A DNA stretch of 64,000 bases from Candidatus Heimdallarchaeota archaeon. GTDB lineage: Archaea > Asgardarchaeota > Heimdallarchaeia > JABLTI01. The position numbers and the translations under genes are program-made. This document shows positions 1,992 to 63,894 of this stretch, piece by piece (the first letter of the stretch is position 1; the number at the start of each line of letters is the position of its first letter). The notes under the pieces are model-generated. The model made no database searches and was not told where the DNA came from. It saw nothing but the letters and a program-made list of their open reading frames with translations. Where the stretch lies: NCBI GenBank assembly GCA_019056785.1, contig DXJV01000062.1:1-64000 (forward strand), in the 5' to 3' direction.

Positions 1992-3326
1992 CTAATTTGT
2001 CGTTATTTTCACTGGGATACCTAATTGTGCCAGTCTCCTGAAGAAGAACTTCTCGATTTCAGGCTCCTCGACGGTCCGGCTGAAGTTGATCACCAGTTTA
2101 TCTTCGAAGCTTACCACTGCGCAGCCTGTGGTGATGATTTTGCTTGGCGCCAGGATGAAGTCGAAGTGTTCTATTTCTTTTGCGAAAGCCTTTGGCATGT
2201 TTATTTTTCCGAGGTTGCTCATTTTTCCTGAGTTTTGTTTTTCGCCCATTTTTTGGTATATGAATTCTCCGAACAGCCGTTTCAAGAACAGCGGTATGAT
2301 TCTTATTATTGGTATTAGTTCTCCTCTGACATTTCTTGTTATGTATTGTCTTAGTGGTCTTCTTGCTATTTCTTTTTTCATTGCGTGTTGCACGAGTGCG
2401 AGTATTTCTTCGAAGGTATATTTTCCCAGTTGTGGTTTTAGTTCTGGTGAGACCATATATGTGAAGTTTCTCATTGTTTCTGATTCGAATATTCTTCTCA
2501 GGTTTACCGGCACTGCCACTCTTATTGGCTTTTTTATTTTTTTTCGTACTTCTTCTGGTAGTTTTTGATAGATTTCTTGCAGTGCTTCCAAATAGATTGC
2601 TGTCAGCAGTTCTGAGATGGTTACTTTTTTCCTTCTTGTTACATCGAGTATTTTTGCTACTGACATTGTTCCTCGTATGATGTGGAACACGCCTTTTTCC
2701 ACCGGTGTTAGTGGTGGTTTGAATGCTTCGCTTTTTCGTTTTGGGTTTGGCAATTCTTTCATGTAGTAGCGTTTATAGGCGTAATCGTATTCTGTTGGGC
2801 TTGGTGTCTGGTTGAACCTGAAGATGTCTCCCCAGTCGTTTGTTTCCACCCCTCTTCTTGTCAGATAGTCTGCCACCAGCGCTTTCAGGAATGTGATCCC
2901 TCCATAGCCGTCTGTTAAGCTGTGATGGAATTCGACTGCTATGCGATTAAAATAGACTTTTACTCTAAACGGGAAGATTCCTCTTGTATGTATGGCGATT
3001 TTCTGGCAAGGAAATTTCGTTTCTGCGTAGATTTCGGGTATTTCTTTAGTGCTTTCCCAGTATTTCCAGAACAGGCCGCTTCGCAGTGTCACTTGAAAAT
3101 AGGGAAATCTTTGCATGATTCTCTCGAGTGTTTTTTGTAAATCGCTCAAGTTTATCCGTTCTTTTAGTGTGCATGACACTCTGAAGACATTGGTTGACCG
3201 GTCGGAATTCATGAGCGCAAAAAGCGTTGCTGCGTTATCTAGTTTGTAATAGTCCCTCTCTGTTTGAGTTATTCGTATTTTTTTCACTGGAAAACCAGTG
3301 ACTTCTGAATTATAATTTCCTTCCAA
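1992..3326 (-). CDS. Alcohol acetyltransferase / condensation-fold CoA-dependent acyltransferase
   Basis: HHSLTDG (HxxxD catalytic motif), KLDNAA, VPVNLR and SNLG motifs. Confidence 0.8.
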   Translation of the reverse strand: MEGNYNSEVTGFPVKKIRITQTERDYYKLDNAATLFALMNSDRSTNVFRVSCTLKERINLSDLQKTLERIMQRFPYFQVTLRSGLFWKYWESTKEIPEIYAETKFPCQKIAIHTRGIFPFRVKVYFNRIAVEFHHSLTDGYGGITFLKALVADYLTRRGVETNDWGDIFRFNQTPSPTEYDYAYKRYYMKELPNPKRKSEAFKPPLTPVEKGVFHIIRGTMSVAKILDVTRRKKVTISELLTAIYLEALQEIYQKLPEEVRKKIKKPIRVAVPVNLRRIFESETMRNFTYMVSPELKPQLGKYTFEEILALVQHAMKKEIARRPLRQYITRNVRGELIPIIRIIPLFLKRLFGEFIYQKMGEKQNSGKMSNLGKINMPKAFAKEIEHFDFILAPSKIITTGCAVVSFEDKLVINFSRTVEEPEIEKFFFRRLAQLGIPVKITTN

Positions 3327-3576
3327 ATTTACTACTACCTATTATTTTGCCTTATTATTTACTGTTCTTTTTTCATTCAATCTCTATCTTAAACCTTGGC
3401 ATACCGTCATAATTCTCATGCTACTTTTTTTCCTTCTTTTTTTCCTTTCTTCGTGGTTTTTTTCTTTGTTACCTTTTGTTTGTTGCTCTCCCAAACCTTT
3501 TTTAATAGTAAAGAGATATTTTGCCAGTTTTGGCATTTAATTAGTAATTATTACCAAACAGGAGAAGTTACGAAAT

Positions 3577-4860
3577 ATGAATGACTCATCATCTGATCTT
3601 GTAGAGGATTCTGAACCCGATAATTCTCAACCACCGACTTATACGCGGTATAAATATCGCTGGGTTGTTCTTGTTATTTTCATGTTCGTTGGTGCTATGA
3701 CTCAAGTCATTTGGATTACTTTTGCCGGCGTTACCGATGAATCTGCTGCCTATTATGGCGTTAATAACAACATGATTCTTTTGCTTTCGCTTGTTTTTAT
3801 GATTGCTTATGTCCCCATGAACTTTCCCGCCTGTTGGCTCATTGACAAGCTTGGCTTGAAATGGGGCACCGGCATTGGTGTTATTTTGACCGGCTTATTT
3901 GGCTTTTTACGTGCTGTTGCTCCTTCCTACGGTTGGTTGTTGTTCTTTCAAATCATGACTGCTATTGGTCAGCCTTTTGTTCTTAATTCCTTCACCAAAT
4001 TGGCTGCCAATTGGTTTCCGCAAGAAGAAAAGACCTTAGCTTCAGGTTTGGGCACCGTTGCCATGCTTATTGGTGTTATTGTTGCTTACATTGCTTCTCC
4101 GTTCATCCTTGGTTCCACGCCGCCTTATCGGATGAACTGGCTATTGTATATCTTTGGTTCTCTCACCTTGTTTGCAACTGTTCTTTACCTTATCTTTGTT
4201 AAGGATAAACCCCCCACACCTGCGAACCCTTACAGTGACAAGAGCAAAGTCTTAGTGACCAAAGGGATACGTTCCATGTTCAAAAAGCGTGACTTTATTT
4301 TGCTCTTCGTTTTGCTGTTCCTCGGCCTTGGCTCCTTCAATGCTCTTTCCACTGTTTTAGACATTGTTCTTGGCTACCCCCCTGGCTCTGAAACTCCCGG
4401 CCTGATTGGTGGAATTATGATTATTGGTGGCATTATTGGCGCTATTGTTATGTCCACTCTTTCCGACAAGACCGGGAAACGGAAAATCTTCATCATTCTT
4501 GCTCTTATTGGCGGGGCGATCTTCACGCCCTTATTGGTTTTCATCGAGAATACTATTTGGCGGTATTTTGCTGCCTTCTTCTTAGGTGTTCTTCTTGTTT
4601 CTGCTCTCCCTGTCGGTCTGACTTTTGCGGCGGAAATTACCTATCCTGTTCCTGAAGAGACTTCCAACGGGTTGATGCAATGGAGTGGGCAAATCGGTGG
4701 TATTATTCTTATTGCTTGTATAATGGTTACCAATATCTTCAATGCTTCTTTGGTGTACATTAACATCATTATTATCACTGTCCTTTTTGTCATTGGTGCG
4801 ATCCTTTCATTTTTCATTGGCGACCTTGATAAGTATCAGCTCACCTCTCCGCCAAAATAG
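3577..4860 (+). CDS. MFS transporter (FLVCR-like)
   Basis: About 12 TM helices, N-terminal RYKYRWVVL, LIDKLG and LSDKTGKRK loop motifs, LAANWFP. Confidence 0.85.
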   Translation: MNDSSSDLVEDSEPDNSQPPTYTRYKYRWVVLVIFMFVGAMTQVIWITFAGVTDESAAYYGVNNNMILLLSLVFMIAYVPMNFPACWLIDKLGLKWGTGIGVILTGLFGFLRAVAPSYGWLLFFQIMTAIGQPFVLNSFTKLAANWFPQEEKTLASGLGTVAMLIGVIVAYIASPFILGSTPPYRMNWLLYIFGSLTLFATVLYLIFVKDKPPTPANPYSDKSKVLVTKGIRSMFKKRDFILLFVLLFLGLGSFNALSTVLDIVLGYPPGSETPGLIGGIMIIGGIIGAIVMSTLSDKTGKRKIFIILALIGGAIFTPLLVFIENTIWRYFAAFFLGVLLVSALPVGLTFAAEITYPVPEETSNGLMQWSGQIGGIILIACIMVTNIFNASLVYINIIIITVLFVIGAILSFFIGDLDKYQLTSPPK

Positions 4861-62225: not shown

Positions 62226-62277
62226 TTTTTTTTAAAAAAAAGAAAAGAAGATTTTGACGGGTTTTTGTCTATTCTTT

Positions 62278-63894
62278 TCATTTTGTTTTTTTGCTTATTA
62301 TTCGTTCAGGAAAGATTCCTTGATCTGCTTTTCGCATATGGTAGATAGCGCTTGAGCTATAAACCAGTGCAGTGAGAAGAGCATGAGCAAAGAAGGTTAC
62401 AGTCAAAAAGTACTTGGCTTGTAGTATAAACAGCACTAGAATGTGGAGGGTGTAGATGTTTCTTCTACCATCAAATCTTCGAAACAGCCGGTCAAATTTG
62501 CTGCTATCTGCTAAGGAGAGCCCCACAACTAAATGATATTGCATTGAAACGTGACGATTAAAGGAGTCTAGAATGAGAAAGGCGATGAGGAAAATTATCC
62601 AGGGAAGCAGTGGTTGGTTTGTGATTGCAATTGTATACCATCCTGCTGCGAAATAAATAGTTTGTTCATACAGCTGATCAAAACTGTGTTCGATGTTTCC
62701 GCTAATTGTTAATCTTCCCCTTACTCGAGCCAATTTGCCATCGACTCCGTCCAAGACATTTACTGCGATTAGCAAGACAAAGGCAATCCATGGGAGGGCT
62801 GTGGTGATAGTCGGATGCTTATTTCGTATATATGGTGCAGTTAACAGGCAAGCTGCCAGACCAAAAGCTAAGAGATTAACAAGCATTGTAATATGGTTTG
62901 GCGTCAAAGGGCTATTGGCAATTGTAAAGGTTACCATGTGCTCCAAAGGGCGGTTAAAATACCAAGCAATAAGGTCTAATGTGCCTTTTTGGGTCAATTT
63001 CACTAAATTCCATTTTACCCGTAATAAATCTCTCTTAGTCTCGAGTTTGAAATAATGGACAGGTAAATTTCGTCGCATAGAGGGAACATAGACAGGAATG
63101 GTCGAGAGTTTGATGCTCGCGGTATTTGTTTCAGCGAGAGTTTTAATAATGTTCCAAACTGGTTCCTGCTCTTCTTTCATCTCGCCAGAATTTTTCTCAG
63201 TTTCATTTTGGAAACTTTTTCTCAAGAAAAGCTTTGTAACTCTACAAAGCGGAAGATAAGAATTAACCTTAAGTTTACTCGAGTCTTCTGGTCGTTTAGT
63301 TTGCCGGTCTTCCTCTACAAGTAAAGATAAAGCCGTTTTCTTTTCTTCAGTCTTATTAACATGTTCCAGGGAGTGTTCTTCTAAAATTGATTGAATAATT
63401 CGTTTATCAAATAACCATTGCCCATCCATAAGGAGTACTGTGGTACCATCATTACTTTCTATCTCCTTGTTAAAAAGGCTTGGAGTATTAAGTAGCCTTT
63501 TAGTCGAGGAAAAGTGAAATGTGATTTTCTGTTTAAATGGTATATTCCTCGATTTTAAGATGCTTTCTTCCACAAGGGCTAAAAGTGATTCATTCTTTGA
63601 TGTGAGGAAAATTTCTTTAACACCAACTTCTTGAAGGAGATTGACCTGGCGTTCAATTAACGATTGTTTTGCCAGCTTTCTTTCCAAATAGAGACTTCGC
63701 ACTTTTTTATTGGAGGTATTCTTTGTTCTTACTGACTCTTCATTTGACATTTCAGGTAAATAAATTATCACTTGGAGGGTATTTTTTACGTATAGGTTGT
63801 TTTCTTCTGCCAATCTTTTCACCTCGAGGCTTTTTGCTGCGTTTTTGAAGAAAGACGAACGGGGAGAGGGGTGAAGAATTACCATAAAAAGCAA
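62278..63894 (-). CDS. CDP-alcohol phosphatidyltransferase with degenerate N-terminal nucleotidyltransferase-like domain
   Basis: LTPNHIT and DGVDGKLARVRG..G..EHSFD; N-terminal 'SLIERQVNLLQEVGVKEIFL'. The true start may be near 63750. Confidence 0.8.
   Translation of the reverse strand: MLFMVILHPSPRSSFFKNAAKSLEVKRLAEENNLYVKNTLQVIIYLPEMSNEESVRTKNTSNKKVRSLYLERKLAKQSLIERQVNLLQEVGVKEIFLTSKNESLLALVEESILKSRNIPFKQKITFHFSSTKRLLNTPSLFNKEIESNDGTTVLLMDGQWLFDKRIIQSILEEHSLEHVNKTEEKKTALSLLVEEDRQTKRPEDSSKLKVNSYLPLCRVTKLFLRKSFQNETEKNSGEMKEEQEPVWNIIKTLAETNTASIKLSTIPVYVPSMRRNLPVHYFKLETKRDLLRVKWNLVKLTQKGTLDLIAWYFNRPLEHMVTFTIANSPLTPNHITMLVNLLAFGLAACLLTAPYIRNKHPTITTALPWIAFVLLIAVNVLDGVDGKLARVRGRLTISGNIEHSFDQLYEQTIYFAAGWYTIAITNQPLLPWIIFLIAFLILDSFNRHVSMQYHLVVGLSLADSSKFDRLFRRFDGRRNIYTLHILVLFILQAKYFLTVTFFAHALLTALVYSSSAIYHMRKADQGIFPERIISKKTK

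Follow-up and report, generated by a model that had tools for sequence, protein, structure and literature searches.

The window, meaning the whole analysed stretch of 64,000 nt of contig DXJV01000062.1 from a Candidatus Heimdallarchaeota genome (GCA_019056785.1), contains 47 copies of the palindrome CTCGAG. A first-pass annotation had placed 46 of these, all at exact coordinates, and one more was found at 45717. Codon phases were assigned with an ATG-based gene set, outside which falls the TTG-start ORF 5709-6569 (minus strand). The CTCGAG sites, which are given without a strand, are as follows.

3123..3128, in-frame CTC GAG, ORF 1992-3212 (minus strand)
5689..5694, intergenic, flanked by ORFs 4969-5625 and 5709-6569
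5915..5920, nCT CGA G in TTG-start ORF 5709-6569 (minus strand), not in the ATG-based gene set
6202..6207, nnC TCG AG in ORF 5709-6569 (minus strand), not in the ATG-based gene set
7172..7177, nnC TCG AGn
7987..7992, nCT CGA Gnn
8801..8806, CTC GAG
10979..10984, nCT CGA Gnn
11188..11193, nnC TCG AGn
14622..14627, nnC TCG AGn
15183..15188, nnC TCG AGn
16665..16670, CTC GAG
16932..16937, CTC GAG
17247..17252, CTC GAG
18482..18487, intergenic
22254..22259, CTC GAG
24198..24203, nnC TCG AGn
25214..25219, nCT CGA Gnn
26140..26145, CTC GAG
26802..26807, CTC GAG
27423..27428, CTC GAG, opens the five-site cluster 27423-28104
27578..27583, nnC TCG AGn
27615..27620, CTC GAG
27875..27880, CTC GAG
28099..28104, nnC TCG AGn
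33049..33054, nnC TCG AGn, paralogue at 28948 without the site
35228..35233, CTC GAG
35520..35525, nCT CGA Gnn
36468..36473, CTC GAG, varies among strains
36895..36900, nnC TCG AGn
37733..37738, CTC GAG
40711..40716, CTC GAG
40744..40749, CTC GAG
44874..44879, intergenic, abuts the stop codon of ORF 44145-44873
45717..45722, nCT CGA Gnn, absent from the first-pass annotation
48882..48887, not within any ORF of at least 300 nt
51926..51931, CTC GAG
52411..52416, nnC TCG AGn
52576..52581, nnC TCG AGn
55855..55860, CTC GAG
56432..56437, nCT CGA Gnn
58153..58158, nnC TCG AGn
60894..60899, CTC GAG
62724..62729, nCT CGA Gnn
63040..63045, CTC GAG
63278..63283, nnC TCG AGn
63823..63828, CTC GAG

The examples of codon phase put forward earlier (CTC GAG at 16665, nCT CGA G at 25214 and nnC TCG AG at 24198) were correct, as were the intergenic copies at 5689, 18482 and 44874. 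The same holds for a pair of DUF134 paralogues on the minus strand, which read GTC TCG AGA at 33048 and GTC TCG CGA at 28948; the second lacks a site because CGA replaces AGA. The five-site cluster at 27423-28104 is of a size within chance expectation genome-wide.

The GC content of the window was 37.5%, where about 35% had first been estimated. In all, 47 copies were observed against 6.4 expected, and dinucleotide-preserving shuffles of the window gave a mean of 6.44 +/- 2.53 and a maximum of 13, with none of 100 shuffles reaching 47. The palindrome GAGCTC, thought to occur about seven times, was counted eight times. Genome-wide, there are 1731 copies of CTCGAG, and the comparison of all hexamers that had been proposed placed it first of 4096 under every null tried. 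Its observed/expected ratio was 4.61 under a zero-order, 5.1 under a first-order and 2.43 under a third-order null; under a maximal-order Markov null it was 1.62, with the runner-up hexamer at 1.29.

It is precisely the six-base word that is in excess. The tetramer TCGA is enriched only 1.17-fold, which rules out TCGA frequency as its source, CTCGA and TCGAG outside the full hexamer are not enriched, and other NNCGNN words are unaffected. The bases flanking CTCGAG carry almost no information, ruling out a longer repeat. In spacers the one-mismatch neighbour classes lie within the normal range (0.67-1.55) and none is depleted; TTCGAG and CTCGAA, which had been called common, were at 0.97-1.13-fold relative to a codon shuffle and 1.08-fold in spacers.

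Within genes, 1491 copies were observed against 512 after synonymous-codon shuffling (z=48), with ratios of 3.0, 1.9 and 7.1 in the three codon phases. Hexamer-specific odds ratios, for which the tests covered the congeners G010, G009 and G005, support an excess in every phase. With a dicodon-preserving null the excess persisted in four genomes of the family and was absent in the outgroup. Intergenic spacers were enriched 4.9-fold and CTCGAG ranked first among 3860 hexamers there; strict non-coding DNA held 95 copies against 21 expected. Divergent, convergent and tandem spacers were equally enriched (5.7-, 4.9- and 4.4-fold). These data support the view of CTCGAG as an iterated, over-represented palindrome acting at the level of DNA.

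The excess is specific to one clade. Every one of the 12 genomes in one Heimdall family (f1) showed it and none of 19 sister-family genomes did; it was missing from the outgroup G016 (1.2-fold, z=1.5), and no true second case was found among 201 genomes of the phylum. CTCGAG is about five times too abundant, both inside genes and between them, in a single Heimdall-group Asgard family. The first-pass annotation had allowed that codon or dicodon structure, TCGA frequency or confinement to the window might account for the enrichment, and none of these does. It had also supposed the excess to be undescribed in Asgard archaea, and no paper describing it was found in the literature.

Individual sites are replaced completely between congeners. 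In comparisons at saturated divergence, the numbers of shared sites were 2, 10 and 3 against 2.2, 10.6 and 0.9 expected. Sites are spaced as in a Poisson process (CV 0.997; 5-kb windows without a site number 25, where 22 are expected), and the genome holds no clusters beyond chance, including clusters of replication-origin type. Both strain-level site polymorphisms are CpG transitions from CTCGAG to CTCAAG; one of them, 36471 G>A in runs X8 and X10, converts the site at 36468.

The agent was sought among the encoded enzymes. A methylation-coupled system had been suggested as the cause, with an orphan XhoI/PaeR7I- or TaqI-like methyltransferase expected to follow the enrichment. The genome (82.5% complete) yielded no XhoI-family nuclease, C5-methyltransferase or Vsr, and none of the detectable DNA methyltransferases tracks the trait convincingly, so that a methylation-coupled cause is left unsupported. 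MTase A is the only genus-specific enzyme among these; the sister genus G011 did not yield it, its close homologues at 62 loci of other lineages occur without any anomaly in CTCGAG count (259 copies, 280 expected), and its family looks like persistent orphan m4C enzymes with recognition sites of 4-5 bp. MTase C is kept class-wide with its target-recognition region unchanged, and the distribution of MTases B, D and G is either patchy or confined to this strain. As agent of the excess, none of the five fits. Each of the 11 remaining f1 genomes, the second genus included, has a single copy of a NucS-like nuclease, NucS2, whereas the 19 sister-family genomes contain no orthologue of it; NucS2 combines a NucS_C / PD-(D/E)xK nuclease domain with a divergent N-terminal half, and has been deleted from the genome under study at the syntenic locus. 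No gene among those tested could be matched to the excess.

Several explanations can be weighed against these observations. It is scarcely credible that the excess simply reflects codon usage, codon-pair bias, amino-acid content, an mRNA motif, a repeated element or an assembly artefact. A generic T/CGA codon-context preference, also seen in the unenriched outgroup (odds ratio 3.2; control contexts 3.3-3.6), does account for some of the nCT CGA G signal, and the non-coding DNA of G010 shows no enrichment (8 copies with 6.3 expected, or 1 with 3.4 expected under a strict mask), which a purely DNA-level process does not predict. However, the signal is hexamer-specific in three phases, its flanks contain no longer repeat, and it recurs across 12 independently assembled species and in about 20 public runs, all stored as short-read contigs, that stem from 17 studies. 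CTGGAG and the remaining Leu-Glu spellings are not avoided. The dicodon null and the 5.7-fold enrichment of divergent, untranscribed-type spacers reject a codon-pair or RNA-level cause, and together with the synonymous null and the top rank in spacers they refute the coding, RNA or repeat reading for this genome. A context-dependent mutational bias that creates or shields CTCGAG with no protein reading the whole site, such as CpG-context protection, is distinctly improbable. CpG is depleted across the class (observed/expected 0.46-0.62 in relatives and 0.82 in this genome), indicating that CpG-context processes are active, both strain polymorphisms are CpG transitions, and turnover is position-independent and Poisson. 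CpG protection, however, yields at most 1/0.46 to 1/0.82 (1.2-2.2-fold) against a first-order ratio of 4-6, no other NNCGNN word is affected and no near-cognate is depleted; six-base specificity with perfect dyad symmetry would also be hard to obtain without a dimeric reader.

That NucS2 drives the excess by CTCGAG-dependent cutting or repair, leaving a slowly decaying relic in the genome that has lost it, is very unlikely. Its distribution fits the trait better than that of any methyltransferase, and its nuclease domain has the fold of many restriction enzymes. Against this, the co-occurrence lies on a single branch of the tree and therefore counts as one event, nothing links NucS2 to the sequence CTCGAG, and the genome without the gene has the same normalised enrichment (first-order ratio 5.1, against 4.1-6.0) and the clearest non-coding excess. 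Weak natural selection on the sites themselves, each serving a genome-wide function, for example as marks, methylated or bound, that guide strand discrimination during mismatch repair, control replication or organise the chromosome, as has been argued for HIP1, has a better claim but is on balance unlikely. The complete site is raised with its neighbours untouched, as at equilibrium, the trait spans the genome and the clade, MutS is encoded class-wide, the genus retains both orphan methyltransferases, A and C, and HIP1 is reportedly under selection (PMC5861425). However, site positions are not conserved, spacing is no more regular than random and forms no clusters of replication-origin type, the two-fold range of density among congeners simply follows GC content, unenriched sister families encode MutS and MTase C to the same extent, and no methyltransferase can be assigned to CTCGAG.

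The explanation preferred here, which is put forward tentatively and at somewhat less than an even chance, is that an ongoing, position-independent process at the DNA level, resembling a weak fixation advantage for the complete palindrome, keeps CTCGAG about five-fold over-abundant in this family. A full site that is boosted while its neighbours are undepleted behaves like a selection-like equilibrium. The effective strength would be ln(3 to 5), or approximately 1.1-1.6 in 2Ns units or the conversion-bias equivalent; sites would arise and be replaced at random through synonymous and non-coding changes, the process being too weak to change proteins. No amino-acid effect was seen in Leu-Glu conservation (36% when spelled CTCGAG, 35% otherwise) or in the Leu-Glu dipeptide ratio (1.04). 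The agent would be a protein that recognises the palindrome in its entirety, in the manner of restriction-modification-type enzymes; most probably it would bias repair, gene conversion or DNA exchange, in a sequence-specific way, towards the allele that carries the site, perhaps in connection with methylation. The unenriched non-coding DNA of G010 runs counter to this reading, as does the search for a reader protein, which yielded no match. A constant requirement for every single site appears less likely, and the present data are compatible both with fixation bias and with weak direct selection on sites. Type II restriction-modification enzymes typically act on palindromes of six bases that they recognise in full. 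Several archaea methylate CTCGAG by m6A, m5C or m4C enzymes (PMC11033074), and an orphan methyltransferase modifies it in Nocardia (PMC4752239).

A fixation bias of this kind can be compared with known systems. The Dcm/Vsr very-short-patch repair of E. coli is a methyltransferase-linked repair bias that raises the frequency of its site word; it requires a C5-methyltransferase and Vsr and depletes the T:G-derived neighbour, whereas in the Heimdall case neither enzyme was found and no neighbour word is depleted. In the DNA uptake sequences of Neisseria and Haemophilus (DUS/USS; PMC2397512), likewise, a single short word recurs exactly thousands of times, within genes in every frame and in the spacers; these copies are thought to be maintained by molecular drive, through biased uptake and recombination, and not by per-site function. 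Unlike CTCGAG they are non-palindromic, 9-12 nt long and often paired at terminators, and competence is documented for their hosts but not for Heimdall archaea. In Nocardia the identical hexamer belongs with a conserved orphan methyltransferase instead of a defence system, and its sites cluster locally at the replication genes, near dnaA (Blow et al. 2016, PMC4752239); the Heimdall excess differs in being uniform genome-wide, with no clusters beyond chance and no CTCGAG methyltransferase identified.

The closest parallel is with HIP1 (GCGATCGC) and the alternate highly iterated palindromes of cyanobacteria (Elhai 2015, PMC4390886; Xu et al. 2018, PMC5861425), to which the first-pass annotation had likened CTCGAG. 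The likeness holds insofar as both are short restriction-type palindromes that are over-represented instead of avoided, genome-wide, in every reading frame and between genes, lineage-specific and with no accepted mechanism. It does not extend to magnitude (15-300-fold for HIP1 (PMC5861425), 3-5-fold here), to positional conservation, which HIP1 sites have and CTCGAG sites lack between relatives, or to spacing, which is reportedly periodic for HIP1 and random for CTCGAG. HIP1 is moreover a cyanobacterial octamer with biased one-nucleotide deviations and the methyltransferases DmtA and DmtC, whereas CTCGAG is an archaeal hexamer with unremarkable one-mismatch variants and no identified cognate methyltransferase. 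Within this limited resemblance, CTCGAG may be regarded as a milder relative of the unexplained cyanobacterial palindrome.

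The window (contig C51 of the assembly under study, G000, which spans 2.87 Mb in 102 contigs and is 82.5% complete) contained 47 CTCGAG sites, where dinucleotide-preserving shuffles gave 6.44 ± 2.53. The first-pass annotation had placed 46 of these, all correctly, and overlooked one at 45717. Its estimate of about seven copies of the control palindrome GAGCTC agreed well with the eight counted; that of about 35% GC was near the measured 37.5%, if a little low. One large gene was also recorded in the window:

38047-43350 (+): 1767-aa protein with subtilase S8, clostripain C11 peptidase, CARDB, FG-GAP/beta-propeller and TSP3 repeat regions

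Across G000 as a whole, 1731 CTCGAG sites were found, one per 1.66 kb, and CTCGAG ranked first of the 4096 hexamers under all Markov orders tried, with observed/expected ratios of 4.61 (zero-order), 5.1 (first-order), 2.43 (third-order) and 1.62 (maximal-order, where the runner-up reached 1.29). Each of the large contigs was enriched, at densities of 0.39-0.84 per kb, and the excess is thus not confined to the window. The flanks of the sites were nearly information-free, indicating that the repeat unit is exactly the hexamer, and the pentamers CTCGA and TCGAG stood at expectation once CTCGAG's own copies had been subtracted. A longer repeat or MITE was rejected as the source because the flank logo was flat, and TCGA, at just 1.17-fold, was neither the true unit nor frequent enough to explain the excess. 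The one-mismatch forms, initially described as common, proved unremarkable for all 18 such words. GCCGGC, considered as a second iterated palindrome, was found mainly as in-frame GCC-GGC (Ala-Gly).

The excess could not be attributed to codon usage. The 2286 ORFs called in G000, which cover 80% of the genome, held 1491 CTCGAG sites against 512 ± 20 under a within-gene synonymous codon shuffle (z=48), under which GAGCTC stood at 0.92-fold. All three codon phases were affected:

CTCGAG by codon phase (codon boundaries hyphenated): sites in the window (n=47), and sites in G000 genes against the codon shuffle
CTC-GAG: window 21; G000 934 versus 311 (3.0x)
nCT-CGA-Gnn: window 7; G000 324 versus 168 (1.9x)
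nnC-TCG-AGn: window 13; G000 233 versus 33 (7.1x)
Outside gene calls: window 6

Interaction odds ratios, which are independent of codon usage, were 3.8, 2.4 and 3.5 for the three phases and approximately 1.0-1.8 for control contexts. A dicodon-preserving (codon-level first-order) null, which itself already includes five of the six CTCGAG bases, left 1.52-fold and 2.19-fold in the two phases whose sites stretch over three codons; the excess therefore persists under both coding-aware nulls. Within genes the sites were evenly distributed except in the first tenth, where they were fewer, and their dependence on GC3 was only mild. Compensation for avoided Leu-Glu spellings was also rejected, since CTGGAG and the others were not avoided.

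Non-coding DNA was enriched as well. G000 DNA lacking an open frame of >=300 nt in any of six frames contained 95 CTCGAG sites against 21 expected, and with a 180-nt mask there were 35 against 7.4. In spacers, CTCGAG was the highest of 3860 testable hexamers (4.86-fold; next, 2.7-fold). Divergent (5.7-fold), convergent (4.9-fold) and tandem (4.4-fold) spacers were counted as equally enriched, which excludes an RNA-level cause. The initial observation that CTCGAG occurs in every codon phase and outside genes was therefore borne out quantitatively, and codon-pair or translational bias was rejected because all phases were affected, the dicodon null was survived and the spacers were enriched.

Among Asgard genomes, the CTCGAG/GAGCTC ratio was 2.3-3.55 in all 12 genomes of one Heimdall family (f1, two genera, including G000); every one of the 19 genomes from three sister families fell between 0.30 and 0.89. 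In a survey of 201 genomes of the phylum, the only ratio above 2.5 outside f1 was that of G036, from another Asgard family, f12 (4.4), with G107 at 2.3. G036 was rejected as an independent case: CTCGAG was merely 1.17-fold against a codon shuffle, and the ratio is misleadingly high because GAGCTC, a SacI-type site, is avoided (0.48-0.6-fold at loci L191-L202). Within f1, three congeners of G000 were tested on 0.34-0.80 Mb of sequence each:

Observed/expected CTCGAG in three congeners of G000
G010: first-order 4.1x (top hexamer there too); codon-shuffle 2.9x
G009: first-order 6.0x; codon-shuffle 3.3x
G005: first-order 5.2x; codon-shuffle 3.4x

In all three the dicodon null was survived and every phase was enriched, CTC-GAG weakly so in G010. 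Their pooled spacers contained 33 CTCGAG sites against 11.8 expected. An initial two-layer idea, in which the congeners were enriched in coding sequence only and G000 alone at the DNA level, was softened because the spacers of G005 (16 against 3.0) and G009 (9 against 2.5) were enriched, and only those of G010 were not (8 against 6.3). The outgroup genome G016 showed no enrichment over 800 kb (1.2-fold, z=1.5). An apparent phase-1 signal in G016 (odds ratio ~10, 19 sites) resolved at 800 kb into a generic T-CGA context preference; in every genome tested a T-ending codon is preferred before Arg-CGA, with an odds ratio of ~3.2-3.6 in G016 and 1.3-1.8 in f1, which inflates the count of any nCT-CGA word. 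Composition also varied among these genomes. CpG observed/expected was 0.46 in both G016 and G005 and 0.82 in G000, the CGN share of Arg codons rose at the expense of AGA from 21% (G016) through 44% (G010) to 70% (G000), and GC climbed from ~32% to the 38.6% of G000. It is firmly established that the CTCGAG excess is real, lies at the DNA level and is specific to one clade.

The fate of individual sites was followed between G000 and G010, for which 387 reciprocal-best orthologue pairs were identified (median amino-acid identity 56%) and whose four-fold degenerate sites are saturated (identity 0.337, chance 0.299). At 400 conserved Leu-Glu dipeptides, CTCGAG was used 67 times in G000 and 13 times in G010, and by both genomes at 2 positions (2.2 expected); in the other two phases, 10 common sites were found against 10.6 expected and 3 against 0.9. 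Between these relatives, saturated as they are at synonymous sites, there was no positional conservation of CTCGAG beyond controls, and since shared positions were at chance level, individual sites are not maintained. The excess arises anew and independently in each lineage, with G000 and G010 favoring different phases. Leu-Glu itself was unaffected: it was conserved in 36% of cases when written CTCGAG and 35% otherwise, and the dipeptide's frequency was normal, implying that the pressure acts solely through silent and non-coding positions.

Spacing between neighboring sites in G000 could not be told from Poisson (CV 0.997, at the 24th percentile among 569 control hexamers; variance-to-mean ratio 1.10), a result that applies to neighbor distances in an assembly of 102 contigs rather than to periods of 10-90 kb. 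Of the 5-kb windows, 25 were empty (22 expected); the longest interval without a site, 13.7 kb, was about as large as the expected maximum, and clusters were no denser than chance. At closer range, a conspecific JGI contig (L208, Ga0190349_1000627; 98.6% identical over 10.3 kb) had 6 of 7 CTCGAG sites in common. Strain variants (~0.4-4% divergent) were present in hydrothermal-vent and marine-sediment metagenomes, in 20 public runs from 17 studies. Four strain-bearing runs gave 111 variable places over 20 kb (window 22001-42000); among the 40 listed, one destroys a CTCGAG site and none creates one, a sample with no statistical power.

A protein that might read the palindrome was sought among nucleases and methyltransferases. 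The loci concerned are:

G010 L159:9917-10711 (+): divergent NucS-like paralogue, 264 aa
G000 C15:1827-2144: gap at the syntenic locus
G000 C36, L001:1480-2271 (-): methyltransferase (MTase) A
G000 C36, L001:2483-3010 (+): Cys-rich 175-aa ORF
G000 C57, L003:1462-2175 (-) and L003:2455-3606 (+): orphan MTase C locus, beside uvrA
G000 C32, L004:27-2415 (+): Dam-like methyltransferase, 206-aa ORF and circularly permuted HPPY-motif methyltransferase

The best phyletic match was the NucS-like nuclease, which has a NucS_C / PD-(D/E)xK domain and an unrelated N-terminal half. Each of the 11 other f1 genomes carries a single copy of it, and none of the 19 sister-family genomes has an orthologue. In G000, the gene is cleanly deleted from the syntenic locus, and the enrichment stays full. 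No match to the XhoI-family endonuclease (PF04555) was obtained in G000, in a weak search in which no control genome matched either; as CTCGAG is moreover enriched rather than avoided, restriction-modification of the XhoI/PaeR7I type was rejected. Mismatch repair was rejected as a correlate because MutS is class-wide.

The first-pass annotation had looked to an orphan methyltransferase whose presence would track the enrichment across relatives. N4/N6-type methyltransferases are present in G000, and none of those detectable tracks the excess or is assignable to CTCGAG. MTase A, an orphan with an SPPY catalytic motif (m4C type), adjoins a bactofilin-domain gene and is transcribed away from the conserved Cys-rich ORF. 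Orthologues at 70-75% identity were present in 8 of the 10 congeners; beyond the genus none surpassed 49%, and in f1's other enriched genus MTase A was not found. The divergent pair was present in 7 of 7 Heimdall loci; the Cys-rich ORF, with several CxxC pairs, had no Pfam or PADLOC match; its AlphaFold model reached a pLDDT of just 60.8, and the top Foldseek match had an E-value of 0.15. The wider MTase A family (53-67% identity; Methanomicrobiales, Nitrososphaerota, Thermoplasmata, Brocadiaceae and others) lies beside housekeeping genes such as glnA and radical SAM genes, and a recurrent neighboring nuclease was rejected on this ground. DNA flanking 62 homologues showed no CTCGAG anomaly (259 observed, 280 expected). 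Desulfurococcaceae/Sulfolobales loci that were 3.6-fold enriched locally reflected a codon effect (whole-genome ratio 0.85, shuffle 1.17-fold). Staphylothermus, for which m4C-CTCGAG is reported, was absent from the best 80 homologues. Persistent orphan m4C enzymes of this family's taxa have been assigned to 4-5 bp sites (PMC10609329). In the 20 kb around the Methanoculleus/Methanomicrobiales homologues (L279-L335), CTAG stood at 0.07-fold, all NCTAGN palindromes were avoided, and GATATC and CTGCAG were each in 2.5-fold excess.

MTase C (DPPF motif, CcrM-like) is transcribed divergently to uvrA and conserved throughout the class, and its alignment with the outgroup orthologue runs over the full length; GANTC occurs somewhat less often than expected in G000 (0.74-fold; relatives 0.9-1.0). 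MTases B, D and G are patchily distributed or unique to the G000 strain, G having no relatives in the genome-contig database or the PDB. The three-gene C32 locus is likewise patchy, occurring in G000, G010 and some genomes of a sister family (f2), with pseudogenes in G004 and G005. A methylation-coupled cause is a hypothesis for which no candidate enzyme emerged.

Very-short-patch repair of the Vsr type would call for a C5-methyltransferase, a Vsr endonuclease and depletion of the deamination-derived neighbor word. Neither a C5-methyltransferase (PF00145) nor Vsr (PF03852) was matched in the 82.5% complete G000, and the deamination-derived neighbor was not depleted; Vsr was rejected on both grounds. 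No near-cognate was depleted in G000 spacers, where CTTGAG/CTCAAG stood at 0.78-fold and TTCGAG/CTCGAA at 1.08-fold, both in the normal range. Undepleted neighbors are the signature of a reversible advantage of the whole site, of a selection-like or conversion-like kind, and not of one-path repair such as Vsr. The best reading of these observations, tentatively held, is a weak, position-independent fixation bias that a putative protein reading the whole palindrome would impose. Weak direct selection on the CTCGAG sites themselves accounts for the observations nearly as well, is somewhat less likely, and is inseparable from such a bias on present data. More doubtful still is a novel sequence-specific molecular drive (a bias in gene conversion, repair or DNA exchange) acting on an XhoI-type palindrome in one Heimdall family without known Dcm/Vsr-type machinery, perhaps with the NucS-like nuclease or an unrecognized CTCGAG reader. 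The CTCGAG system would help to distinguish drive from selection.

Restriction-type palindromes are normally avoided, and a lineage that accumulates one signals an active sequence-reading process. HIP1, the highly iterated palindrome of cyanobacteria, is only now, after 30 years, being tied to methylation and gene transfer. For practical purposes, the CTCGAG excess provides a clean compositional signature by which f1 genomes can be binned and foreign DNA within them detected, and native-DNA reads of these uncultured archaea are worth checking for CTCGAG methylation.

A full-text literature search pairing CTCGAG with Asgard returned nothing, in keeping with the earlier statement that no description was known. 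Elsewhere, CTCGAG is methylated in archaea (PMC11033074) and is the target of an orphan methyltransferase in Nocardia (PMC4752239). DNA uptake sequences, which go with competence or uptake machinery that prefers a particular sequence, are non-palindromic and 9-12 nt long, whereas CTCGAG is a 6-nt palindrome. The closest analogues are HIP1 and the alternate HIPs of cyanobacteria (PMC4390886, PMC5861425). The proposal that CTCGAG is HIP1-like held for an over-represented palindrome that occurs in every reading frame and outside genes. It did not hold for positional conservation, as judged among saturated relatives, and the magnitude, at 3-5-fold, is well below the 15-300-fold of HIP1 (PMC5861425). 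CTCGAG further differs from HIP1 in that its neighbor spacing is random, its one-mismatch variants are normal and no cognate methyltransferase was found among the detectable G000 enzymes. Both are over-represented, restriction-type palindromes that occur in all frames and between genes, are lineage-specific and are unexplained. As a second, independent system beside HIP1, CTCGAG would offer a comparison in which the word is another, the host is an Asgard archaeon, and the effect is weak, random in position and rapid in turnover.
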